Shown here: piece by piece, positions 4,406-30,822 of the stretch
How the letters are laid out: each line of letters opens with the position of its first letter
Position numbering within the stretch: position 1 is the first letter of the stretch
DNA from: a virus
Lineage: Duplodnaviria; Heunggongvirae; Uroviricota; Caudoviricetes
Length of the DNA stretch: 35,731 nt
Virus record (IMG/VR): IMGVR_UViG_2713896799_000024
Span: 1 to 35,731 of that record
Direction: 5' to 3' (one strand)
The notes under the pieces: generated by a model
What the model saw: the letters and a program-made list of their open reading frames with translations, nothing else
The model's database searches: none
Told to the model about the DNA's origin: nothing
Made by a program: the position numbers and the translations under genes

Positions 4406-4825
4406 TCGTGTTTCCGCTTCGCCGGAGCGCCTTTTCGCGCCATGTGATGAGTTCGGTCAGGCTCATGGGATACAGTTCTGATGGCGGCCAGTGAAATATC
4501 ACTGCCACATCCGCCATCAGGTCATCGACCGAGAGATTTTTTGGAAACGTCACTGCACCGAGTTCGGCGACAAAAAACCGACCACCTTACCGGCCAGCGC
4601 CACAAGGTCAGGCAGTTCCAGCGCGGCGACTTCCTGCTCGGTCAGCATCGGTGCCGTCATGCGCGGCAGCACCTTAATCAGTGCATCGACTTCGGAGTTC
4701 GCGACCGCTGCCAGACTGACACCGCGCAGCGTCCCGGCATTGGGTTTCATCAGCGTGACCTGTTCAATAACCTGCTCACCACGTTTGACCGGATTGTCCA
4801 GGGTAATGACATTTTCTTTGTTCAT
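4398..4825 (-). CDS. E+E': Tail assembly chaperone E+E' produced by programmed -1 ribosomal frameshift at TTTTTTG (plus-strand 4571-4577)
   Basis: On the minus strand the E frame contains GGT TTT TTG; slipping -1 there gives an open frame (VAELGAVTFPKNLSVDDLMADVAVIFHWPPSELYPMSLTELITWREKALRRSGNTNE) ending at TAA 4398-4400, which overlaps the T start codon (ATGAGTAA). Same architecture as P2 E/E+E' and lambda G/GT. Confidence 0.8.
4550..4825 (-). CDS. E: Tail assembly chaperone E (short product)
   Basis: 91-aa ORF MNKENVITLDNPVKRGEQ... directly upstream of T, as for P2 gpE. Confidence 0.9.
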   Translation of the reverse strand: MNKENVITLDNPVKRGEQVIEQVTLMKPNAGTLRGVSLAAVANSEVDALIKVLPRMTAPMLTEQEVAALELPDLVALAGKVVGFLSPNSVQ

Positions 4826-5411: not shown

Positions 5412-6602
5412 TTAATTGCTGTTAACCGAAGTGACCAGATTTGCCAGGTATTTATCGGTAATACGCTGGCGCAGGGTCAGGTTTTCAAGAGGAGGCACCG
5501 GGGTATAGTCATAGTCGATATACAGTTTTCCGGCCTTGAGGGTTTCCGCATCGTTGGATTCTTCGCTGAACCAGCAGGTCGCATCCACGATATAGCCGTT
5601 TGTTTTCAGCTCACGGAATTTGGCATTGATGCCGTCAACGATGTCGCGAATCAGCGTTGCGGTGATGGGCTTGTCCACCGCCCACATGTGCGCCTCAGCC
5701 ATCGTGTCGGCCAGCACCTGCGCGGTGCGGGTGTAGTTTTCAAAGAGGAACAGCGGGTCATCAGAGCAGGTACGGTTACCCCAGAAGCGGAAACCGTCGC
5801 GGCGAATCAGCGTAGTGACACCTGACTCGTTAAGCAGGTCAGCATCGGTGCCGGACTCCTGCAAATCCCAGAATACAGATGCGCTGATGCCGGTAACACC
5901 TTTTACCCCGACGTTGGACAGCGTTTTATGCCAGCCCTGCTCCTGGTCGATTTTAGCGCGCAGACCCAGCGCACGGGCGGTGGCATACGCGGTGGCGGTG
6001 GTACTGGTGACCGTATCCCATGCGAGGAAATCCGGCCAGATGACCATCAGCTCACGCTGGCTGAAATTCTGGCGGTAGGCTTTCACCTCGGAAATGGTTT
6101 TACAGCCCCATGCGCTGATATATCCGAAAGCGCGCAGCTTCTGACAGACTGATGCCAGTGCAACAGCCACCTCTTTGGTATCCAGTCCCGGTACGCCGAG
6201 AATACGCGGTTTAACACCAGTTACCGACTCCGCCGCCAGCAGGGCTTTCAGTCCGGTGTACTGACCGTTTTCGTCGGTGGTGCCAATGATATTGGAAACG
6301 GTCTGCGCGAGTTTTGTTTCCTCGTCGTCGCCGGTGCCGTCTTCCACACGCACGACAACGGTGACCGGTTTTGACTGGTCGGCGATAGCCTGCAACGATG
6401 CCGCCAGCGTGCCTTTTTTACCGGCCTTTGCAATTGCACTCTGCACATTGGTAATCAGCACCGGTTTATTGAGGGGGAAGGTTTCCGCATCCGCATCGCT
6501 GGCCGTGCAGACCATGCCGACAATGGCAGTGGATACAGTGGAAATGACACGGGTGCCGTCGTTAATCTCCAGCACCTGCACGCCGTGATGATAGTCACTC
6601 AT
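5412..6602 (-). CDS. FI: Tail sheath protein FI
   Basis: 396-aa ORF MSDYHHGVQVLEINDGTRVIS..., contractile sheath family, first gene of the F operon. Confidence 0.92.
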   Translation of the reverse strand: MSDYHHGVQVLEINDGTRVISTVSTAIVGMVCTASDADAETFPLNKPVLITNVQSAIAKAGKKGTLAASLQAIADQSKPVTVVVRVEDGTGDDEETKLAQTVSNIIGTTDENGQYTGLKALLAAESVTGVKPRILGVPGLDTKEVAVALASVCQKLRAFGYISAWGCKTISEVKAYRQNFSQRELMVIWPDFLAWDTVTSTTATAYATARALGLRAKIDQEQGWHKTLSNVGVKGVTGISASVFWDLQESGTDADLLNESGVTTLIRRDGFRFWGNRTCSDDPLFLFENYTRTAQVLADTMAEAHMWAVDKPITATLIRDIVDGINAKFRELKTNGYIVDATCWFSEESNDAETLKAGKLYIDYDYTPVPPLENLTLRQRITDKYLANLVTSVNSN

Positions 6603-6674
6603 CCGTTTAACTCCGTGGTTAATGGGTGCAACTATTTTCTGTTGGGCAGTGCATGAGACGCTATTTGACCTGAC

Positions 6675-6692
6675 TGGTCAGTGGATGAAACA
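6675..6692 (-). promoter_or_regulatory. Candidate Ogr-dependent late promoter dyad (P_F) upstream of FI
   Basis: TGG-N12-ACA followed by ACAG (tggtcagtggatgaaacaACAG); shares the ACAACAG core with the elements at 16318 and 24279; centre about 81 bp upstream of the FI ATG. Confidence 0.5.
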
Positions 6693-6697
6693 ACAGA

Positions 6698-6726
6698 TTA
6701 AAGAAAAGGCGGGCAATTCGCCCGCC
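6698..6726 (-). terminator. Rho-independent terminator (minus strand) between the Z/fun-position cargo and P_F
   Basis: GC-rich 7-bp stem ggcgggc/gcccgcc with 5-nt loop; on the minus strand it is followed by a U-run (plus-strand aaagaaaa at 6700-6707). Confidence 0.6.
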
Positions 6727-7116
6727 TGTCCTGATTTGAACTCACTCATTTTCCGACTGACAATTTACATAGCCCAAAAGTTATCAAATCTGACAGTCTG
6801 CTTTGAGTGAGAAGCAGACATTTACTTAACCGGATAGCAAGAGACTTCATACTACAGCTCATACATCATGGTTGATCCCGGAGTTTTCAGCAATGGAAAT
6901 TGCCCACATGATCGTACCGTAACCACATTAGAAGCAGGTTCACTTTGTGAATTTTGATTGTGTCACCCTATCAGTTTTGAATTTTTATAAAAAATATTCG
7001 CAAATTTGTGAATTATGAGAGACATACGAGCATGGACAACCAATGTTACTTTCATACACAATGAAGCAACATGATAAAAATACACTGACTTTAGTAAGTA
7101 AATTTAGGAGATTGCG

Positions 7117-8451
7117 ATGTTTAGCTTAATCATGGCCGGAGAACCGGACGTTTTTGACCGCTGGCCGTGTATGGACCCTGAGCTTAAAGAAGGCAAGGAA
7201 AGCTTCTCGATGTCCCGCATGCTGGAAGGCACCCCAAGCAATATTTACAGAAAATTAACACCAATAAGACCCGATACCTTAAGAGTACTCGCCAAGCTAC
7301 CGGTGTTGTTCATGACCGAAATTTATACAAAAGATGATGAATATGATACAAACAAGTACATCAGGATCAGGCTTGGGGAAATAAGAAATTTACGTAAAGA
7401 TGGTGGCGATATTTTATTTTCTTTCAAGATTAATCATGATTTTGGAGAAATAACAAATCCCCAAACGACATTATATAAAGAAACCCTAGGACTAGGATCT
7501 TTCGGGTTAAGTCGTACACATTGGGCAGTAAAAAATAAGGATTTGAATATTGTTCTGGAATTACTTGGTTTAAACAAAAAAAATAGCCATCTGAAAGGTA
7601 CAATCAAATTAAAAAAACAAACATACCCAGTAGTCGAGAATATTATAGATTATCTTAATTTCATTAAGAAAAACTTTCGTGATGGTCTCATTACCTTCTA
7701 TCGTGGACACTCTAAAAGCTCATATGAGCTTGTCCCCTCTCTTTACAGAAAAAATCAAAACGGGACGTACAGGCATCTTGCTTCAGAATCTGATTTAGTA
7801 CGTGAAATACTCAGCGCAAGACCAAATGAATTTAAGGAGGATAAATTTACGATTGATAAACTTGTCCGCATGCAGCATTATGGCTTGCCTACAAGACTCT
7901 TAGACATTACATCTAACCCACTGATAGCATTATATTTTGCTTGCTGTTCGAACCCCGATGAAAACGGACAGGTGATTTCGTTTTCAACAAACAGAAAGAA
8001 AATTAAATATTTCGACTCAGACACAGTGAGCTGTATAGCAAACTTATCACTTTTATCTTACGAAGAGTTGGAAAAATTGTCTTCCATTGATGCCAGAAAA
8101 GGTAGTATGGAGTTACCTGAACTCACTGATAAACTTGCAGACCTTATACAGAATGAAAAATCATATTTCAGAAACAGAATAATCCCTGATGACTTAAAGA
8201 AAGTTGTTTTCCTTAAGGCAAAAATAAATAATGAACGCATACAATCTCAGGCAGGAGCTTTTCTTCTGTTCGGACTTGATCCCATTTTACCGGAAACAGA
8301 TGCTGAGTTTCCTCTTAACAGAGTGGAGATAGCGAACAAAAATAAAATTCTGGAAGAGCTGGCACAGCTTAATATATCCGAAAGCACTGTATATCCCAGC
8401 ATGGAGAAAACGGCAGCAGAAATTACAAAAAAGTTTTTATCGGTATCATAA
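7117..8451 (+). CDS. Cargo gene at the P2 Z/fun position: FRG-domain protein (444 aa), function unknown, candidate anti-phage/abortive-infection protein
   Basis: AGGAG RBS 6 nt upstream of ATG; translation contains ITFYRGHSKSSYELVPSLYR and RMQHYGLPTRLLDITSNPLIALYFAC, matching the FRG-domain signature (FYRG motif, QHYGLPTRLLD block); visibly AT-rich and on the opposite strand to the flanking late genes. Confidence 0.75.
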   Translation: MFSLIMAGEPDVFDRWPCMDPELKEGKESFSMSRMLEGTPSNIYRKLTPIRPDTLRVLAKLPVLFMTEIYTKDDEYDTNKYIRIRLGEIRNLRKDGGDILFSFKINHDFGEITNPQTTLYKETLGLGSFGLSRTHWAVKNKDLNIVLELLGLNKKNSHLKGTIKLKKQTYPVVENIIDYLNFIKKNFRDGLITFYRGHSKSSYELVPSLYRKNQNGTYRHLASESDLVREILSARPNEFKEDKFTIDKLVRMQHYGLPTRLLDITSNPLIALYFACCSNPDENGQVISFSTNRKKIKYFDSDTVSCIANLSLLSYEELEKLSSIDARKGSMELPELTDKLADLIQNEKSYFRNRIIPDDLKKVVFLKAKINNERIQSQAGAFLLFGLDPILPETDAEFPLNRVEIANKNKILEELAQLNISESTVYPSMEKTAAEITKKFLSVS

Positions 8452-8681
8452 AGGGATAAACTAAAGGAAACGAAAACTAAGACTGCGCAGTCTTCAGGTG
8501 GAAGTACTCATCGGGAACGGTTTCAGGGGCAAAAACTGGAAGCTCCAATGGCCTTGAGCTGCTCCCTATAAATTAACATATCTCAATGTTATCAATGTCT
8601 GCTTTTGGCACAGAGCGGACTGTCAGATTAGGCTTTACTCTGTGCCATAGATATGTAAGCTCACACCAGAGCTCATGCAAC

Positions 8682-9209
8682 TTATTGCGGCATTTCCGGC
8701 CATTCAGGATTTGCAGGATCCACACGGCTGACCAGAACGCTGTAGCGTTCCCATGACTCCAGTCGTGCGCGCTCCTCATCCGTCGCCATATTCAGCCTGA
8801 CGGCGCGTTCCAGCGGCTGGATAACTGATTCAGCTTCGGAAAGTAACGCGGCCTTTTGTGATTCGGCCTGTTGTTGCTGTTCGTCTGCCGTATAAATCCG
8901 CTTAATCACGGCACCATCCTTAAACATCCATTTACCTGAGTCATCAGCACGTCGGTTGGAGGTAATATCAGGAACCTCGACAACGCTGAAACCTTCAGGG
9001 TTAAGCGTTGAAGCATCTCTGGTGATGCCGACAATTATATTATTCTCGTCGTAAACAATCTTTATCGTGTCTTCCTGAAAATTACTTACTTCCTCATACC
9101 AGTTTTTTCCCTCTTCGGACCATAACCAGATAACATCAAAATTTTTTGTCAGTTGATATTGGGCAACAGTTTTTGGATTACCCGCAGTAATATTTTTTAA
9201 ATGCTGCAT
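8682..9209 (-). CDS. G: Tail fibre assembly protein G
   Basis: 175-aa [33 protein letters not shown]..., directly downstream of the tail fibre gene, as P2 gpG. Confidence 0.88.
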
Positions 9210-9212
9210 AAA

Positions 9213-9827
9213 TTACACCTGTGCGACGTTATACCATGTGCCATTGATGTATTTTTGTATTGGCCTGAATACTGCGGGGTCATCACCATCGACTTCACCG
9301 ACAATACCAAGCCCGGTAATTACGTGCCCTGCTTTCTCATACATCACCCCTTTCTGCATGGTCTGGACAACACGTGTGCCAAGTCTGATATCTCTCACAT
9401 AGCGGGAATCAAAGTTACCGTAATCCGAGGGATTAACACGCCCCGTAATATTTATGGTCTTATTACTTTGAATGCTTCCGGAAACAAAGCGCATAACATG
9501 GACGTTATTAGCATAAACATCCAGATTACCATCGCCATTTTGTTTAAATCCGGTGTCGTTATCACCAAGAACAATAGAGTTCCCACCCAACGCGTTATTC
9601 GTGCCAAGTGCCAGCCCGCCATCAATCCTGGCACCATTACCAACAGACACAACTCCTGTTCTTAAGTTGATGCCGAATGGCCTTAATGGCCCAATATCTC
9701 CATTTTCACCCTCATTTTCTCGTGTAGGAATGATATACAGGTTTTCTTCAGAACGGCGAAAAATAGCCCCAAAAGATGAATTAAATATCCTCAGTGCATT
9801 GACTGTAGATATTTTGCGTATTTTCAT
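9213..9827 (-). pseudogene. H: Tail fibre H, 3' fragment separated from the 5' part by an IS21-family insertion
   Basis: 204-aa ORF with G/N-rich beta-strand-like tail-fibre C-terminal sequence; its apparent ATG lies within the IS terminal repeat region and has no RBS; lengths of the two fragments (487+204) approximate intact P2 H. Confidence 0.75.
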
Positions 9828-10007
9828 GAAAGGAGATCACTCAATAACTTCCATCGAGATCGGGTAATAACATTTGAACAGATCGCTGAATAACATCGAT
9901 GGAGATCACTTTTGACTCATTTTGTTATTCAGTGATCTCCATCAATGTTATTGGAACTTCACAGGTGTGTTGATCTGTATCTTTTGCCATTCCGGTAAAG
10001 GATACCT

Positions 10008-11549
10008 ATGCCAACAGTTCCAATTTCTATGAGAAAACTTAAAGAAATTCTTAGGCTTAAATACGGTGTTGGACTCAGCCATCGACAAATTGGTCGTAGT
10101 CTTGCAATCTCCCCTTCCGTTGTATCCAGATATGCTAATCGGGCGGCTCAACTTGGCATAAAGCAGTGGCCCTTACCTACAGGATGGGATGATACAAAAC
10201 TAAAACATGCGTTCCTTCAGACCCAGGTTAAGATGAAGAAGCACTCTCTGCCTGACTGGGCTACAGTACACCGGGAACTGCGTAATAAATGCGTGACGCT
10301 GCAGCTACTCTGGGAAGAATACTGTGAGCGTAATCCAGGCGGTTTTTACAGCTATAACCATTACTGCCGGATGTACCGTGAATGGCTCAAAACCACTTCA
10401 CCATCAATGCGTCAGGTACATAAAGCTGGCGAAAAACTTTTCGTTGATTACTGTGGACCTACCGTTGGCGTTACCGACCCTGAGACCGGAGAAATAAGAA
10501 CTGCTCAGGTCATCGTAGCTGTTCTCGGGGCATCAAGTTACACATGGGCAGAGGCCACCTGGTCTCAGCAGCTTGAAGACTGGGTGATGAGTCATGTTCG
10601 CTGCTTCCAGTGGTTGGGTGGCGTTCCTGAACTTGTTGTTCCGGACAATCTGAAAAGCGCCACATCCAGGGCATGTAAGTATGATCCTGACGTTAACCCT
10701 ACCTACCAGCAGATGCTTGAGCATTATAATGTCGCAGTTTTGCCTGCGCGGCCACGTAAACCGAAAGATAAAGCCAAAGCTGAAGTTGGCGTTCAGGTTG
10801 TTGAACGCTGGATCATGGCCCGAATCAGGCATGAGATCTTCTACAGCCTTGCATCGCTTAATCAGCGCATTCGGGAGTTGCTGGAAAGACTGAATAACAA
10901 AATAATGCAGAAGTTGGGTTATTCACGTGCAGAACTCTTCATCCAGCTTGATAAACCCGCACTGAAGCCTCTTCCTGAAGCCAGTTACAGTTACACCCTG
11001 GTGAAGAAAGTCAGAGTTCATGCCGATTACCACGTGGAAATCGACAAACATTACTACTCGGTTCCATGTTCGCTGTTAGGCCAGCAACTGGAAGCATGGA
11101 TCTCCGGAGAACTGGTAAGACTCTTCAATCAGGGGCAGGAGGTTGCTGTGCACCCGCGCAAGCGTACTTATGGCTACAGTACCCGCAACGAGCACATGCC
11201 TGAAGCTCATCGACAGCATGCCACCTGGACGCCAGAGCGTCTTCTGGAATGGGCGGGGCACATAGGCAGTGAAACTCATAGTTATGTGCTTCATATACTG
11301 AACTCTCGTCCACATCCGGAACAAAGCTATCGCTTCTGCCTTGGACTCCTGAACCTTCATAAAAAATACAGTAAAGCCAGACTTAATGCAGCATGTGCAA
11401 GAGCTCTGAAAACAAAGGTATGGCGTCTGTCAGGTATTAAATCGATCCTGGAAAAAGGTCTGGATAAACAACCTGTTCAGGATCCAAAACCAGATCTGTT
11501 ATCCACGATGGAACACGAAAACGTACGCGGCAGTGAGTATTACCACTGA
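10008..11549 (+). CDS. istA: IS21-family transposase IstA
   Basis: 513-aa ORF with N-terminal HTH region (LSHRQIGRSLAISPSVVSRY) and central DDE integrase-like region characteristic of IstA. Confidence 0.85.
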   Translation: MPTVPISMRKLKEILRLKYGVGLSHRQIGRSLAISPSVVSRYANRAAQLGIKQWPLPTGWDDTKLKHAFLQTQVKMKKHSLPDWATVHRELRNKCVTLQLLWEEYCERNPGGFYSYNHYCRMYREWLKTTSPSMRQVHKAGEKLFVDYCGPTVGVTDPETGEIRTAQVIVAVLGASSYTWAEATWSQQLEDWVMSHVRCFQWLGGVPELVVPDNLKSATSRACKYDPDVNPTYQQMLEHYNVAVLPARPRKPKDKAKAEVGVQVVERWIMARIRHEIFYSLASLNQRIRELLERLNNKIMQKLGYSRAELFIQLDKPALKPLPEASYSYTLVKKVRVHADYHVEIDKHYYSVPCSLLGQQLEAWISGELVRLFNQGQEVAVHPRKRTYGYSTRNEHMPEAHRQHATWTPERLLEWAGHIGSETHSYVLHILNSRPHPEQSYRFCLGLLNLHKKYSKARLNAACARALKTKVWRLSGIKSILEKGLDKQPVQDPKPDLLSTMEHENVRGSEYYH

Positions 11550-11560
11550 TACGGGATCCA

Positions 11561-12310
11561 ATGATGAATCATCTTTACGAACAACTGACCGCACTTAAAC
11601 TCACCGGCTTCCGTGATGCGCTTAAAAAGCAACTTGCTCAGCCGGGCACATACCAGGAGCTGGGCTTCGAAGAACGCCTGTCATTACTGACAGCAGAAGA
11701 ACTAACCTGCCGTGAAAACAGGAAGGCAGAGCGTCTGATCAAACATGCACGGTTCAGACTTAATGCTGAGTTATCAAAGCTGGATTATCGTAACAATAGA
11801 GGGCTGGACAGGGCCCTCATCCGTTCACTCAGTCAGGGAAACTGGTTAACCCTGAAACAAAATATTTTACTGACCGGGGCCACCGGCAGCGGTAAAACGT
11901 TCCTGGCATGTGCACTTGGTCATAATGCCTGCCGACAGGGATACAAGGTCTACTATTATCGCCTTAAAGCGCTGATGGAACAGTGCTATCAGGGGCATGC
12001 TGATGGAAGATACAGCAAACTTTTGACCAGGCTGAATAATAGCGATCTGCTGCTTCTGGATGACTGGGGGCTGGAACCTCTCTCATCAGAACAGCGTAGC
12101 GACCTGCTGGAAATAGTGGATCTGATGTACCAACGAGGCTCAATCATCGTAGTGAGCCAGTTGCCGGTGGAAAACTGGTACAAAATGATCGGAGACTCCA
12201 CACATGCGGATGCCATCCTAGATCGACTGGTTCATGGCAGTATCAAGATCGAACTTAAAGGAGAATCAATGCGGAAAATACAATCTCCGTTGACCGAAGG
12301 AGATCAGTGA
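11561..12310 (+). CDS. istB: IS21-family helper ATPase IstB
   Basis: 249-aa ORF with Walker A LLTGATGSGKTFLA and Walker B LLLLDDWG; immediately downstream of istA. Confidence 0.88.
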   Translation: MMNHLYEQLTALKLTGFRDALKKQLAQPGTYQELGFEERLSLLTAEELTCRENRKAERLIKHARFRLNAELSKLDYRNNRGLDRALIRSLSQGNWLTLKQNILLTGATGSGKTFLACALGHNACRQGYKVYYYRLKALMEQCYQGHADGRYSKLLTRLNNSDLLLLDDWGLEPLSSEQRSDLLEIVDLMYQRGSIIVVSQLPVENWYKMIGDSTHADAILDRLVHGSIKIELKGESMRKIQSPLTEGDQ

Positions 12311-12380
12311 AGGTAATTTAAAAACGGTTCTGTGAAAGTGACACGAACCGATCTCCATCGATGTTACTCACCGATCTCCT

Positions 12381-13844
12381 TCACGGTAATACGCATATTT
12401 TTACTTCACTGCTGAAAAGGGCTTTAACAAGAACATACAGAGCATCCCATTTAAGATTCATCAGGTCTTTTGTTGTGGTGCTCTGGCGACTTCTCCATTT
12501 GAAATATTCATTGCCGTTGTCACCTGTTTCAAACCACATATATGAATCAGTATCGCTGTCGGCATCATTTTTAAATCCAATCTTTGCCCAGTCAGTATTT
12601 CGAATCCAGGCAAGGATTGAGTCGTTTTCAAAAGTAAGCCCACCGGACAAGGTATCGCCATTCTTTTGCACCGCGTTCCTGGCCCTGTTTACCGTTTCCT
12701 GCAAACCGAGGTATTCGATAACGGCAGTAACGGTCGCTTTGGCAAGAATATCCCGTCCGACTTTTGTCAGGGTTGCCAGGCTGGCAACATCATTCCCCGT
12801 AAAATACGGAAACCTGTCTGCCGCAGTAGCAAGCCCCGCCAGCGCCGTCAGGGTAGCATCTTTCGGTTGCTTACCCGCAAGCGCATTAGTCATGGTGGTA
12901 GCAAAATTCGGGTCATTGCCCAGCGCCGCCGCCAGCTCGTTCAGCGTATTCAGTGCGTCAGGCGACGAGTCTACAAGGGCGGCAATCGCGGCCATAACGA
13001 AAGCCGTGTTTGCGATCTGAGTATTATTCGTTCCCTGTCGCGCAGTTGGCGTCGTTGGCGTTCCGGTCAGTGCAGGGCTGTTTAATGGCGCTTTTTTGTT
13101 CGTTTCATCCATTACCGTCTTAACGGCTTTTGGTGTTGCGGCGAGCGTTTCAGACGTGCTGTTGGTGGCACTACTGAGCTGGACAAGGCCTTTTCGCGCT
13201 GTGGTGGCGTCCTGTGCGGTATATTTCCCGTTAGCCAGGTCATACGCGGCCTTTACCGCTTTCGGCGTTGCGGCCAGTGTTTCAGACGTGCTGTTGGTCG
13301 CACTGCTTAACTGAGTAAAACCTTTTGCGGTCAGCGAGGCGTCCGGGTGACGTCGTGACTGTTCGTGCTCTGCAATTTTGTCATCAACGTAATCTTGCGT
13401 CGCCATCACCGTTGTGGTGTCAATGGTCAGCTCCACTGAGGCCACACTGCTGACGATGATGACCATGCGGCAGGTCTGCGAACGCCCTGAGCCTTCGGCA
13501 AGGGCAGGTTTATAACTTTCGGCCATGTTCGCCACGGCAATTAACGTTCCCGCATCATCGTACAGGCCAAGCTCCCGCATCCAGAAACCGCCCACCTCCG
13601 GCGGAATAATCAGCTCTGCGATAATATAATTACTGTTTCGTTTGTCCTGGCTGATTTTATTCAGCGCATGTCGCCAGACTTCATGGATAAGCCCGGTCTG
13701 TCCGGCATCCGGGACAGGCAATTTACCACCGCCATCCCCGACGGCCATCGTGGTAATGTTGACCTTTCGCCCTCCCGGCGCGGTTGCCGCTGCCAGCTTT
13801 GCTGCACCGGCAGTGGTGATAACGGTTTTGAATTTTGTGCTCAT
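12381..13844 (-). pseudogene. H: Tail fibre H, 5' fragment; reading frame runs into the IS21-family element and terminates
   Basis: 487-aa ORF starting MSTKFKTVITTAGAAKLAAA (P2 gpH N-terminus); last residues (KICVLP-stop) are encoded by the IS terminal repeat. Confidence 0.85.
13119..13330 (-). repeat. Tandem duplication inside H (two ~80-bp homologous units, period 132 bp), encoding repeated QLSSATNSTSETLAATPKAVK
   Basis: Near-identical nucleotide blocks at ~13119-13198 and ~13251-13330; the repeat is visible in the protein and in the antisense ORF 13096-13314. Confidence 0.8.
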
Positions 13845-16352: not shown

Positions 16353-17879
16353 TTATTCCTCATTCTCTTTTCCATTTAAGAGCATTCTTTTTTCACATAT
16401 TTTTTCAACAAGCAAGTTTGCAAATGTATCTAGCTGTGCGTATATATCCTCACTAGGATTTATGGTAAAACCTCCAATGCCATTGGCAGTATCAAACATG
16501 CCAACAGGTGCATCACTATATCTTAAAGGAATAACACACCCATCACCAAATCTATCCCTAAATGTATCACCTTCAAATTTGCACCATATTCTAGTTGGAT
16601 AATCCCTACTCAAAAACGGAATTACAAAAACAGACTCACTCCTATAAATTGGAGCAAGATATTGTTCTACATCTTCAGAAAGTATTCTGGCCTGCTCATT
16701 GAAATCATAAAAAACAGATAACTCATTCTCAATCAGCTTTTGATTTAAATATTCCGCATGATTTCTATTAGCTCCAGCAAATGATAAAGCAAAGTCATAT
16801 TTCGACTTAAACTCAAATGATGTGAACCCTATCTTCTCCGCAAGCTTGCTCCATAACAAATTCTTTATATAATAATAAAACTTGGGATCTTCGATTGAAA
16901 TCTCCGTAGTTTCATCATTATAATGAATAACATCCGAAAAATCAGGATTGCTCTCATAATGCGTTTTTAAATGGCCTCGCGTCAGAATTTGCCCAACGCT
17001 ATTACGATGATTAGGATTGTTAATTAAATAACTTGTCAAATTTAAAGAACGCTCATCTTCTTTAGATAACCAATATAAAACGTGGAGATATGGAGCTCTA
17101 CTACCCTTTTTAACCCGCTGGCCTTTCACAAAGCGAACGACTATATCATTGAATCTATAGCTAAGATCCTGAATCACTGTTTCTTTAAGTGATTCATAGC
17201 TAATATTTGTTTCCCGAGGAGATTCTAACTCTTCTGTGATATCAGCCTGTAAACAAGCATTATAAGCCAACATTTGCGCCAGATGAAATGCCCCATCCGA
17301 GTCCTTTACAATATCTTCTTTTACATTTAGTTTGAAATTAAGCGCATTCTCACCTTTTTCTAGCAACTCCCTGACCTTATATTCCGGATTGGACTCAAAT
17401 TTAACAATGGAGATTCGATTTAGTAAATCCGGTGATAAATCAATCAGTGATTTGCCTGTTTTATTTATACCTATAATAATCAACTTAGAATCTAAGGGTT
17501 GTTCATCCGCTAAATTTTTCAGCAAGTCAGATATTTTATGCTTCAACTCATCATCTAACTTATGAAAATCATCAATAATCACCCCACCGAAACCACTCGT
17601 TGTTATTATATTTTCAATCTGGGCTTTATCTTCCTTTTTCCTTCCAGACAATACTTTAAACTCTTTAATTATCCGACTACTGGTCTCGAATTTTAACTTT
17701 TCAATAACCTGTCTTACGCAAGTCGTCTTCCCTATACCTGATGGCCCTTCAATAATTACCCCTCTTCCCGCTGTTCTTATCGACACATAGAGGTGTTTAT
17801 ACTCGTTAGGTTCAACAAAAGTAATTGTCGGGATACCCGAAAGTTTAAAGACATCTTCTAAATACACTGGTTCGCGCAT
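16353..17879 (-). CDS. Cargo gene between S and V: P-loop NTPase (N-terminal) fused to TIR domain (C-terminal), 508 aa; candidate single-gene anti-phage defence protein
   Basis: Walker A GPSGIGKTT, Walker B GGVIIDDFHKLD; C-terminal YDFALSFAGANRNHAEYL...SVFYD...SVFVIPFLSRDYPTRIWCKFEG matches the TIR fold signature, including the WC..E glutamate that is catalytic in TIR NADases. AAGGGA RBS before ATG; visibly AT-rich. Confidence 0.8.
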   Translation of the reverse strand: MREPVYLEDVFKLSGIPTITFVEPNEYKHLYVSIRTAGRGVIIEGPSGIGKTTCVRQVIEKLKFETSSRIIKEFKVLSGRKKEDKAQIENIITTSGFGGVIIDDFHKLDDELKHKISDLLKNLADEQPLDSKLIIIGINKTGKSLIDLSPDLLNRISIVKFESNPEYKVRELLEKGENALNFKLNVKEDIVKDSDGAFHLAQMLAYNACLQADITEELESPRETNISYESLKETVIQDLSYRFNDIVVRFVKGQRVKKGSRAPYLHVLYWLSKEDERSLNLTSYLINNPNHRNSVGQILTRGHLKTHYESNPDFSDVIHYNDETTEISIEDPKFYYYIKNLLWSKLAEKIGFTSFEFKSKYDFALSFAGANRNHAEYLNQKLIENELSVFYDFNEQARILSEDVEQYLAPIYRSESVFVIPFLSRDYPTRIWCKFEGDTFRDRFGDGCVIPLRYSDAPVGMFDTANGIGGFTINPSEDIYAQLDTFANLLVEKICEKRMLLNGKENEE

Positions 17880-28608: not shown

Positions 28609-30822
28609 CTATTGATAGGTTTTACCAATTAGTGCCAGCTCGAAATGGATGCGTGGAATCTGCGAACGTTCAGCCTTTGTCATCCGCCCTGATGGCGCTA
28701 TCTGGTACGGTTTTAATGGTTCGCAGTTTCTTTGTTGCCAATTCGGTCTCGGTGCACCATGTTTTAATGCACTCCTGAGCACCGTCACAACTTCCGGGTC
28801 ATCCCATCCGATAACACCACTATCAACCAGATTTAACACCGCTGCGGCATGCTCAGACGGTGTAGGGTGCATAACCGGAACGTCACCGCCGGTGAACTTT
28901 CCACAGTTATTGACAGGACTCCGAGGCGCTGCGATGCCGCTTTTTAAAGTCAAAGGCTCAACGACCGGAACTTTCGGCACAATGCGCCAGTTCGTCGTTC
29001 TGGTGATATGAATATGACGCGCGCCGAGATGCGGCGCGTAAATGCCGACCACTCTCTCGACCTCTTCCTCGTACTCGTTAACATCATCCGACGGGCTACG
29101 GGCAACCCTGACAGTCTGACAATCGCGCGGGACATTTGCCCCACCCTGCGCGCTGATATACAACGCAAAATCACCACTGTCTGCGGCAGCGCGAGCAGCC
29201 TCGACGCGTTCGTCAAACTCATCAGCAATACTGACGCCGCGAGGCAATTTGCGTAGTTCACGGTAAGCCCCCATTGTCGGCAGTCCAACCGTTTTAAATT
29301 GCGGGATGCGCCACGTTGACGCCCATGCGGTAACAGCCGCGGCAGTATCTTTAAGCGGCTTACCGGTATCGTTATCGAGCTGACCATCCAGTGCATAGCC
29401 GTCGATATTTTTTGAAATGTATTTCGCGATATATCCCGCAGCACCGCCCCGATTAAGGTGTTTTGCCTGAAAACGGTTTCGCGCGGCTCCTCTTTCGTCG
29501 CCATCCTCTTTGAGCGCATAGCGACGCATGATTTCGATAATCTGGTTACGCTGGCGCGGATTACAAAAAAGCATCATATGCCAGTGCGGCGTTCCGTCGT
29601 GGTGTGGCTCGACGACACGCAAACCGTAGACCTGTAAATCATTATCCTTGAATGCCGTGCGCATCAGGCTCCAGATACGGCAGAGATAACGCTGCGCATC
29701 CTTTGGATTGAATGCCTCATCATTCCAGCCGTGATTAAGCTGGACGGTTTTACTTTCGCCTTTTCCGACCTGACGTGTCGGGTGATACTTTGACGGCGCG
29801 GTCAGCGTGATAAACATCCCCACATCACCCTCTGCGGCGGCGTAACGCTCAATACCGGCAATGGTGTTCATCAGCTCCATCCGGCGAATTTCAGGATTAG
29901 AAATACTGCCCATCACCTTACTGATAAGGTCGATGCGCTCGCCGGTTTCCCTGTTTTCAAGGTCACACGATTTAAGAAATTCCAGATTTGCCTGGCGGCG
30001 CGCACGCACATCACGAATGGCGTGTTTACTGGCATAAGGAGAACGGTCTTTATTGACCTCCCCGACAGCTATCAGTAACGCTTCATGCCAGCGCATACGC
30101 TGGCCTTTAAGCTGATGAGTCCACCACTCATCGTTAAACAGACGGGCAATGGCAGAATATGCCTGCCTCGTGGTCATCAGCCCTTTACGGTATTTTTTCC
30201 AGTAGAGAGGGGAAATATTGAAAGCACGTGCAGCGCCAGCAACATGACCATAGAGGTGAGCCTGCGCCTCATCCGTAAACAGCGATTCTTTTTCGCCATG
30301 CGCATCCACCCAGGCATCGCTGAGTTCCTCATACATCATGAAAAGCTGCGATGAGATACGGGCAGCAAACTTTTTCAGCTCCTTGTCATTCATTCCCGGC
30401 AGGCGCGCATAGTGGTCACGCTCTGCCAGAAACAGTAACGACGCGTCGGTGTTCATTTCATGGCGCTGATTCACACGCTCAATGCGCGGCCATAAACGAC
30501 GCTGAAAAGTGGATGTGAGGAAATAAAACCCGTGCACCGGGCTTTTATTGCGCCGGATGTAGTCATAGCGTGAAGTAAACAGCGAGCGCAAAAAGTAAGG
30601 CAGGCGGTTAATCGTGGATAAAACACCTTGCACCTGACGCATCTCGTCACGTGTAAGGGGTCTTTCGCGCCCGACGGCCTCGCGTGGCGCGTTCCATGCA
30701 TAAGCACCGGTAAACGCCTTACCGGTGCCTGCAGCAAATGCTGACGGAGGGACAAAACGCCCGGAGGCTTTAACGGCCATATGAGCCAAAAGCCTCTGAA
30801 CAACGCCTGCTGAGTTGCTCAA
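28609..30822 (-). CDS. A: Replication initiation protein A (rolling-circle HUH endonuclease); start codon uncertain (30822 or 30780)
   Basis: 737-aa ORF containing HUH-like motif PHWHMMLF and a YxxK-type region; P2 gpA-like throughout. Confidence 0.88.
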   Translation of the reverse strand: MSNSAGVVQRLLAHMAVKASGRFVPPSAFAAGTGKAFTGAYAWNAPREAVGRERPLTRDEMRQVQGVLSTINRLPYFLRSLFTSRYDYIRRNKSPVHGFYFLTSTFQRRLWPRIERVNQRHEMNTDASLLFLAERDHYARLPGMNDKELKKFAARISSQLFMMYEELSDAWVDAHGEKESLFTDEAQAHLYGHVAGAARAFNISPLYWKKYRKGLMTTRQAYSAIARLFNDEWWTHQLKGQRMRWHEALLIAVGEVNKDRSPYASKHAIRDVRARRQANLEFLKSCDLENRETGERIDLISKVMGSISNPEIRRMELMNTIAGIERYAAAEGDVGMFITLTAPSKYHPTRQVGKGESKTVQLNHGWNDEAFNPKDAQRYLCRIWSLMRTAFKDNDLQVYGLRVVEPHHDGTPHWHMMLFCNPRQRNQIIEIMRRYALKEDGDERGAARNRFQAKHLNRGGAAGYIAKYISKNIDGYALDGQLDNDTGKPLKDTAAAVTAWASTWRIPQFKTVGLPTMGAYRELRKLPRGVSIADEFDERVEAARAAADSGDFALYISAQGGANVPRDCQTVRVARSPSDDVNEYEEEVERVVGIYAPHLGARHIHITRTTNWRIVPKVPVVEPLTLKSGIAAPRSPVNNCGKFTGGDVPVMHPTPSEHAAAVLNLVDSGVIGWDDPEVVTVLRSALKHGAPRPNWQQRNCEPLKPYQIAPSGRMTKAERSQIPRIHFELALIGKTYQ

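Follow-up and report, generated by a model that had tools for sequence, protein, structure and literature searches.

The P2-like prophage DNA analyzed here (IMG/VR virus record IMGVR_UViG_2713896799_000024, positions 1 to 35,731; this whole 35,731-nt stretch is called the window below) contains a short inverted repeat, which we call stem B, in the gap between its tail-fiber assembly gene G and a neighboring cargo gene that encodes an FRG-domain protein. Our analysis indicates that this repeat is probably a conserved stem-loop within the ~86-nt terminal repeat on the G side of a cassette element that is non-autonomous and transposon-like and forms the Z/fun hotspot, and that it is not an intrinsic terminator. 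A first-pass annotation, made from the sequence letters alone, had suggested that it might be either a bidirectional terminator or a recombination boundary of the cargo cassette; the second suggestion is the one that agrees with the data, as the repeat lies 10-50 nt inside a conserved block that starts exactly where 47 cargos end.

The gap itself is 230 bp long (8452-8681) and lies between the convergent genes G (8682-9209, minus strand) and FRG (7117-8451, plus strand), as had been described, and the names of the two genes are confirmed by Pfam domains (Caudo_TAP in G and FRG in the cargo gene); the gene at 5412-6602 has a tail sheath domain. The inverted repeat had been reported as 9 bp long with a 22-nt spacer. 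It is present and its spacer is indeed 22 nt, but its arms lie one base to the left of the positions given for them (GGCACAGAG is at 8607-8615, not 8608-8616, and CTCTGTGCC is at 8638-8646, not 8639-8647), and an extra T-A pair extends the perfect arms to 10 bp. Its parts are as follows:

8606-8615, no strand assigned: left arm of stem B, TGGCACAGAG, 88-100% conserved in 73 distinct P2-like sequences
8616-8637, no strand assigned: 22-nt loop with the motif CTGTCAGATT (8620-8629), which is also present, inverted, at the FI-side end
8638-8647, no strand assigned: right arm, CTCTGTGCCA; the pairs covary across 36 diverse ends

The CTGTCAGATT motif occurs only twice in the window, at 6787-6796 (minus) and 8620-8629 (plus). 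Folding of 8590-8660 predicts a stable RNA structure on the plus strand (-24.2 kcal/mol, z -3.0) and on the minus strand (-18.9 kcal/mol, z -2.3), with about -9.9 kcal/mol for the corresponding DNA fold. Among simulated 230-bp gaps, 0.6% contain a perfect 10-bp repeat with a 3-40 nt spacer, and for the whole window about 1.5 perfect 10-bp repeats are expected and 8 hits at 4 loci are found. The repeat is not a chance feature, because over 100 related phages have kept it. The window has two more perfect 10-bp inverted repeats whose spacers are short, at 4478-4520 (23-nt spacer) and 30704-30728 (5-nt spacer).

A BLAST search of phage records gave matches to the "Z-region" entries of P2-EC30, P2-EC31 and P2-EC46 from Nilsson et al. 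(2004), and the matches in AJ512677 (84%), AJ512680 (89%) and AJ512676 (94%) fall under a feature annotated there as "left inverted repeat". This feature, at 3-115 of the three entries, maps to 8597-8709 of the window, and the "right inverted repeat" near FI in the same entries maps to 6729-6819. Judged by these alignments, the repeat studied here is part of the P2 Z/fun "left inverted repeat". A 2022 review that cites Nilsson et al. (2004) describes fun as bordered by inverted repeats that make site-specific recombination possible, in phages and bacteria. The 36-nt cores of the two ends (6787-6822 and 8594-8629) are 83% complementary in the window, and outside these cores its two ends are only weakly alike. 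Overlay on complete copies from other genomes (below) places the window element between 6737 (TGAACTCACTCA; the P2-like consensus is TGTACTCACTCA) and 8679 (...GAGCTCATGCA), and its parts and flanks can be listed as follows:

8594-8679, plus strand: G-type end (G-proximal terminal repeat), comprising most of the "left inverted repeat" of Nilsson; conservation edge at 8594-8598
6737-6822, plus strand: F-type end (FI-proximal terminal repeat, the "right inverted repeat" of Nilsson); conservation edge at 6822/6823
6823-8593, plus strand: cargo, a single FRG-domain gene (7117-8451, plus) that is a candidate defense gene (Pfam FRG; PADLOC PDC-S15, E 1.6e-98)
8680-8686, no strand assigned: flanking 7-mer ACTTATT, presumed copy of a target-site duplication, matching CCTGATT at 5 of 7 positions
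6730-6736, no strand assigned: flanking 7-mer CCTGATT, the other presumed duplication copy, read from the window sequence and the P2-like consensus
6707-6727, minus strand: canonical intrinsic terminator, AGGCGGGCGAATTGCCCGCCT then TTTCTTT, reported by the terminator scan and aligned with phage 186 t45 and with SEN1

Reading outward, the G-type end contains the inner motif AATGTCTGC, stem B around CTGTCAGATT, TGTAAG at 8654-8659 (the second TGTMAG) and the tip GAGCTCATGCA at 8669-8679, and plasmids, chromosomes and other phages have homologous G-type ends with the tip ...GAGCTAATACA. The F-type end contains the tip TGAACTCACTCA (6737-6748), CTGACA (6757-6762), AATCTGACAG (6787-6796) and the hairpin GTCTGCTT/AAGCAGAC within 6796-6819; its homologues are found in Erwinia, Xenorhabdus, plasmids and Escherichia coli. 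Each end has CTGTCAGATT and then, ~33 nt further out, the second TGTMAG; the inner motif of the ends is AAYGTCYGC, and the TGTCAG-type repeats are present twice, ~33 nt apart. The window tips have diverged from the TGT...ACA type, the G-side tip here being ...TGCA. The ACTTATT 7-mer includes the G stop codon, which reads TTA at 8682-8684 and TAA on the minus strand, and the empty sites of 186 and SEN1 have a CCTGAAT/ATTCAGG-like sequence just before the terminator.

The boundaries of the cargo were compared, as the first-pass annotation had proposed, among 123 related loci (119 IMG/VR contigs anchored on the 3' end of G and 4 records of P2-type phages), and the edges of conservation coincide with the repeats. 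On the G side, column conservation rises from ~0.3-0.5 to above 0.9 at 8594-8598, and on the FI side it falls likewise at 6822/6823. Between these edges 47 unrelated cargo clusters, 0.8 to 5.8 kb in length, are present in 100 loci; in P2-like phages the ends stay in place and the cargo changes. The nucleotide diversity (pi) of the non-coding stretch 8606-8681 is 0.07-0.10, compared with 0.19-0.35 at third codon positions of G, and the loop of the hairpin is as conserved as its stems (pi 0.079). The FRG cassette of the window, which belongs to one of these 47 clusters, occurs in identical form in 41 E. coli genomes. None of the 100 P2-like loci revealed a cargo that is present in both orientations, and inversion of the cargo between the inverted repeats was rejected on that ground. 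Within the long cargo of two loci (L056 and L089), ~2.7 kb and 1.4 kb, respectively, upstream of the G anchor, lies part of a G-type end (AACGTCCGCTCCTGGCACAAAGCGAAC...), which suggests that two cassettes may have been joined in tandem there. In one P2-like contig (L117, 8641-8723) the loop and inner hairpin are exchanged for a GC-rich hairpin, GGGCTGC TGTT GCAGCCC, and TTGGCACAG and GTGCTATAGATA are kept.

Could the repeat nonetheless terminate transcription of G, of the FRG gene or of both? Neither strand has a U-tract after the stem, as had already been noted (the stem is followed by AUAGAUAUGUAAG on the plus strand and AAAAGCAGAC on the minus strand), the 22-nt loop carried by the 10-bp stem with its 6 G-C pairs is much longer than the ~3-8 nt of intrinsic terminators, and a consensus terminator scan reported no intrinsic terminator in the gap 8452-8681. 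The bidirectional terminator suggested earlier is not supported by these observations, and an intrinsic terminator is contradicted by the scan, by the sequence that follows the stem and by the comparison with 186 and SEN1. The canonical terminator is instead the one at 6707-6727, just upstream of the FI late promoter and beyond the inserted element, and it is kept in all 76 of 76 distinct P2-like sequences. In phage 186 the tail-fiber assembly gene (the G homologue) is followed by the annotated terminator t45, a B-protein site and the late promoter. Neither 186 nor SEN1 has cargo between the tail-fiber assembly gene and the sheath gene, both repeats are lacking there too, and in the alignment the two phages are without everything from ~6728 to 8681, with t45 aligned to 6707-6727. 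The t45 terminator and the window feature under study are thus alike in operon position, right after the tail-fiber assembly gene and ahead of the sheath gene's late promoter, but the window homologue of t45 is the hairpin at 6707-6727 and not the repeat, which has no U-tract. By this alignment, 6707-6727 is the apparent ancestral terminator of the V-G (tail-fiber) operon and the repeat belongs to a block that appears to have been inserted between G and that terminator; because the G homologue of 186 and SEN1 abuts t45, the ancestral end of the V-G operon would lie beyond the cargo. The V-G operon of the window most likely ends at 6707-6727, having read antisense through the cargo, rather than at the repeat. 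In the P2 genome record a putative V-operon terminator is likewise annotated within the P2 cargo and not at the repeat. The gap also contains a perfect 16-nt palindrome, AAGACTGCGCAGTCTT, at 8479-8494, 28 nt past the FRG stop codon; on the minus strand AGTTTTCGTTT follows it, and as a terminator it would be weak at best (-6.9 kcal/mol, z -0.3). An Rfam search of 6600-8800 with E values up to 1 gave only a chance hit to a long non-coding RNA, and no family matches the repeat.

The same ends are not confined to P2-like phages. The G-side block was found on 98 plasmids at 73-83% identity over ~90 nt, mostly from Klebsiella, Salmonella and Pantoea, and the FI-side block on 24 plasmids; the plasmid-type end is present in 1287 of 5426 E. 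coli genomes, at a median of 1 and a maximum of 3 places per genome with a match. Complete copies have ~90-nt ends with the tips TGTATTAGCTCAGA... and ...TCTGAGCTAATACA (TGT...ACA), and at eight unrelated sites they are flanked by perfect 7-bp direct repeats, the sequence of which varies by site:

ACTGAAT: Salmonella plasmid (L248)
ACTTAAT: Citrobacter plasmid (L249)
ATTAATA: chromosome of E. coli ETEC1739 (L252)
TCTCAGG: Xenorhabdus (L242)
AATAATT: viral contig (L260)
CATAAAT: viral contigs (L263 and L279)
GATTAAG: viral contig (L278)
ATTAAAT: viral contig (L285)

The replicons that carry copies include plasmids (Salmonella, Citrobacter and Klebsiella), chromosomes (E. coli, Xenorhabdus and Erwinia) and other phages. 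Their cargo is of defense type only and includes an HTH-2TM protein, a small hypothetical protein, a pair of HEPN-like and GNAT-like proteins, another FRG protein, retron-type reverse transcriptase, STAND NTPases and SMODS-associated effectors. In more distant Peduoviridae the same end family is present at the V-S (orf30) site and near U/D; it is also present in contigs without P2-like genes and, beside a lambdoid Q gene, in an Erwinia prophage. The ends are common to plasmid, chromosome and other-phage cassettes that have perfect 7-bp duplications and no transposase. Of the hallmarks of transposable elements of the type with terminal inverted repeats and a DDE transposase, or of the mobile-insertion-cassette-like kind, we find terminal inverted repeats, a duplication of fixed length and variable sequence, copies at unrelated sites and an empty site; a cognate transposase was found neither in cis nor in trans. 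A scan of genome contigs with a 15-mer listed 120 loci, of which 117 were chance matches and 3 were real; a cargo-less (miniature inverted-repeat transposable element) form sought in viral contigs gave one chance match only, and the end sequences sought as text in the literature gave unrelated primers only.

Some of the copies have neighbors that are recorded here as separate observations. A Cellvibrionaceae metagenome-assembled genome (L184, 1017-2826) has a diverged G-type end 208 nt from an IS91-family (Y2 HUH) transposase gene, reading inward; it is the sole copy seen to adjoin a transposase, and its contig is too short to reach the other end. In E. coli ETEC1739 a serine recombinase gene (Resolvase domain; L252, 4154-4714) has its end 27 bp beyond the F-type tip of a complete cassette element, and another serine recombinase gene (L249, 1342-1926) is ~2 kb from the Citrobacter plasmid copy; these may reflect coincidence or an insertion preference near such genes. 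In seven of the V-S copies (L254, L264, L273, L275, L282, L283 and L287) the G-type tip is followed by a near-perfect tip-to-tip palindrome, GCTAATA-AG-TATTAGC, which looks as if a second, degenerate tip abutted the first.

The position at which cargo is exchanged can be located from pairwise differences among the P2-like loci. Where two loci share a cargo and their G sequences are at least 4% apart, ~0-4% of sites differ from the cargo outward to 8653 and 21% of sites differ in 8654-8663, and pairs with different cargo and the same G differ at 31% of sites in 8594-8603, a value that drops to 5% by 8614-8623. Eight outer haplotypes (8654-8678) are each associated with 2-8 different cargo clusters, and one cargo cluster is found with five outer haplotypes that are several bases apart. 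The exchange point is inside the end, within 8614-8653, which is the loop and right arm of the hairpin, and not at the tip, so that P2-like phages do not change their cargo by re-inserting whole elements. On the FI side the evidence is weaker, with cargo-linked variation stopping at ~6793-6802, beside AATCTGACAG. In E. coli CREC-591 (L124, NZ_CP024821.1, 5957-7890) the same FRG cassette, 94% identical, occupies a non-P2 locus, and its homology to the window ends inside the inner palindromes of both ends, at ~6804 and 8611, with the outer parts degenerate. The CREC-591 cassette adjoins an AAA ATPase/HNH pair and pinE.

These comparisons show that the hairpin region is conserved, but is pairing of the stem itself selected? 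Within P2-like phages 94% of cells pair, which is not above shuffled controls. Among 36 distinct ends drawn from a range of sites and replicons, pairing is seen in 91.2% of cells compared with 88.7 ± 0.5 in shuffles (reached in 0 of 500), four pairs are changed on both sides compared with 1.3 in shuffles (1 of 500), and 13 further pair types are seen compared with 8.7 in shuffles (0 of 500); slid controls are paired in 26-51% of cells. For example, GGCACAGAG/CTCTGTGCC is replaced by GGCACAGACCT/AGGTCTGTGCC (GAG/CTC to GACC/GGTC) in a sub-lineage present at at least three sites. Across the wider family, stem pairing is maintained by compensatory changes. The alternative G-end hairpin GTCYGC/GCRGAC pairs in only 63% of cells and was rejected as without support.

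The course of events that best accommodates these findings would be as follows: a transposition-like event with a 7-bp duplication would have placed an element between G and the operon's ancestral terminator, and the resulting window element (6737-8679) would consist of two imperfect inverted-repeat ends around one FRG cargo gene, with the degenerate 7-bp duplication flanking it. The hairpin encloses the inner CTGTCAGATT motif of the G-side end, and we infer that it contributes to the working of that end, with stem-loop and motif together forming a cis element recognized by a transposase or recombinase that acts in trans. In P2-like phages the element would no longer move as a whole and would have become a fixed slot with exchanged cargo, and its nearly invariant ~40-nt core would serve as portable homology or as a recombinase site for swaps with sister cassettes, each swap requiring one crossover per end. 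We lean toward crossovers made by general homologous recombination on the short shared block rather than by a dedicated enzyme.

The title of the paper that Nilsson et al. published in 2004 reportedly implies a dedicated site-specific recombinase. The repeat would then be the crossover site of such an enzyme, with conservative exchange at the CTGTCAGATT region of each end, which we consider a possible but rather doubtful alternative. It would explain why the G-side switch in polymorphism coincides with the motif (8614-8653; on the FI side, less clearly, ~6787-6800), why crossovers are packed into ~40 nt despite the adjacent hundreds of bases of 90-95% identical G, and why the FRG cassette at the non-P2 E. 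coli locus keeps only the inner halves of the repeats; serine recombinase genes are also present near three copies. No such gene is consistently linked to the ends, however, the absence of any cargo in both orientations means that inversion between the inverted sites does not occur, the spacers of the inner palindromes differ (8 and 10 nt), the variable 7-bp duplications point to DDE-type transposition for movement of the whole element, and homologous recombination in any event has its best available substrate in the invariant 40-nt block. It is also unlikely, in our estimation, that the pairing is without function, the arms being conserved as a protein-binding end sequence or homogenized by recombination and their complementarity being incidental. 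The P2-like data alone would allow this, with covariation no greater than in shuffles, a loop as conserved as the arms, and most arm changes breaking pairs (33 of 67 stems are perfect and the rest have 7-9 Watson-Crick pairs), but among the 36 diverse ends the compensatory changes exceed both the shuffle and the slide controls, the GAG/CTC to GACC/GGTC sub-lineage is found at at least three sites, the distant L184 copy has a different stem around the same CTGTCAGATT motif, and a perfect 10-bp repeat is unlikely to occur by chance in the gap.

Least convincing, and very unlikely in our opinion, is a role of the hairpin in RNA, either as a non-canonical or Rho-assisted terminator or as a stem-loop that protects 3' ends, for G, the cargo transcript or both. 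The stability of the predicted RNA hairpins on both strands (-24.2 and -18.9 kcal/mol) is what such a role would call for, as are their location at the meeting of two converging transcription units, 35-76 nt beyond the stop codon of G, the replacement of the core by a different GC-rich hairpin in L117 and the covariation of the stem across the family. Against it are the lack of a U-tract, the 22-nt loop and the silence of the terminator scan, the presence of a canonical t45-homologous terminator at 6707-6727 and the annotation of the putative V-operon terminator of P2 elsewhere. The hairpin is, moreover, retained in plasmid and chromosome copies with arbitrary neighbors, and FRG cargo is found either way round relative to the ends (plus in the window and reversed in the Xenorhabdus copy, L242). 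G-U wobbles in the core stem have no strand bias (9 versus 13), so an RNA read from one particular strand is not favored.

Several observations weigh against the terminal-repeat interpretation that we prefer. No end-specific transposase or recombinase was found in cis or in trans, and none is consistently in or beside the copies: the 57 open reading frames on the inner side of G-type ends include one DDE_Tnp_1 hit, and the lone neighbors (one copy by an IS91-type gene and one by a resolvase) are not consistent associations. The presumed duplication in the window matches at only 5 of 7 positions and the tips have diverged; therefore the boundaries of the element are accurate only to ~5 nt. In P2-like phages only 33 of 67 distinct sequences have a perfect stem and covariation is not above shuffles, and with a loop conserved like the stem, selection may be on the primary sequence rather than on pairing. 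In the wider set the covariation comes from a few sub-lineages, and scores of this kind are inflated when sequences are related. On the FI side, low variation of the flank makes the linkage analysis weak, and the P2-like sample was anchored on an exact 27-mer in G and is biased to close relatives.

With respect to known systems, the P2 Z/fun inverted repeats (AJ512676-AJ512680; Nilsson, Karlsson and Haggard-Ljungquist 2004) are in the same place between G and FI, are 84-94% identical, have the same partner repeat near FI, and enclose variable lysogenic-conversion or defense cargo. There is no difference in the feature itself, and the window has another copy of it, with FRG cargo. Mobile insertion cassettes are elements like miniature inverted-repeat transposable elements that carry passenger genes, for example MIC231 of the Bacillus cereus group. 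They resemble the window element in having terminal inverted repeats, a target-site duplication, one or more passenger genes and no transposase, with mobilization presumed to occur in trans, but for window-type ends no parent insertion sequence or transposase is known, these ends are long (~86-90 nt) and unlike each other, and the window-type element is a fixed slot with exchanged cargo rather than a frequently moving unit. The complex ends of the Tn7, Mu, Tn552 and IS21 type are acted on by rve-family DDE transposases. The resemblance of the window-type ends to these (and it is resemblance only) consists of TG...CA termini, a length of ~90-120 nt, repeated internal motifs (here TGTCAG, ~33 nt apart), dissimilar left and right ends, and a short duplication of fixed length. 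The duplication is 7 bp here, in contrast to 5 bp in Tn7 and Mu, and as to the IS21 type, there is no sequence similarity to the IS21-family element of the window and no rve-type gene is associated with the cassette ends.

Integron cassettes and their attC sites are similar in having single-gene cassettes, imperfect inverted repeats that form hairpins, and a fixed slot with changing cargo. Here, by contrast, an integron integrase, a GTTRRRY core and a tandem array are all lacking (an internal partial end is present in only two loci), the repeat is on both sides of the cargo, and whole-element copies have target duplications. An attC identity was rejected, with no tyrosine recombinase at the locus and flanking 7-mers (ACTTATT, ACTGAAT, ATTAATA and others) that do not fit GTTRRRY/RYYYAAC. 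High-copy repeats of the enterobacterial repetitive intergenic consensus (ERIC) or repetitive extragenic palindromic type were also rejected, as there is a median of 1 and a maximum of 3 places per matching E. coli genome and two copies in the window. The sequence ATGTAAGCTC matches the ERIC1R primer in what we take to be its first 10 nt; an ERIC relationship is made unlikely by the low copy number and by the absence of any other similarity.

That the repeat borders the Z/fun hotspot is already known from GenBank and from the 2004 paper. The 7-bp duplications, the empty site in 186, the presence of the ends at other hotspots and replicons, the crossover zone and the transposon-like interpretation may be new. 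P2-like prophages are a major reservoir of anti-phage systems. The border repeat goes unmentioned in the recent papers on their hotspots, two of which call the mechanism of the fast cargo turnover unknown; one of these two doubts homologous recombination with plasmids for lack of shared flanks, and one paper states that transposable elements are almost absent from these hotspots. The border repeat supplies such shared flanks, as the same ends are found on plasmids, chromosomes and other phages and the exchange point is inside the end. A broader proposal, for and against which we see about equal weight, is that the P2-like defense hotspots (Z/fun, and the V-S "orf30" site and the site near U/D in other Peduoviridae) are domesticated insertions of one non-autonomous cassette family, in which the ~90-nt ends would act as universal docking sequences and swaps between unrelated replicons would be confined to the ~40-nt hairpin core. 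If true, it would supply the mechanism that has been called unknown and would contradict the near-absence of transposable elements at the hotspots. If confirmed, cargo exchange inside the border repeat would give the shuffling of defense genes a mechanism that can be tested and would provide a signature (the ends plus a 7-bp duplication) with which cargo slots and new defense genes could be found outside P2-like phages.

Two other features of the window were noted. An IS21-family element at 9870-12395, with istA at 10008-11549 (rve and Mu-transposase C domains) and istB at 11561-12310, splits the tail-fiber gene H into an N-terminal part (12381-13844) and a C-terminal part (9213-9827), so that the prophage is probably defective for tail fibers. 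This element was rejected as a mobilizing partner of the cassette, its ends carrying GATCTCCATCGATGTTA repeats that are unrelated to the cassette ends. The second cargo site of the window, between V and S (the P2 orf30 position), contains a gene (16353-17879, minus strand) for a 508-aa protein with AAA and TIR domains that is similar to PADLOC PDC-S59. The AAA-TIR gene is without cassette ends at this V-S site, and 13 more distant Peduoviridae contigs carry such ends there.

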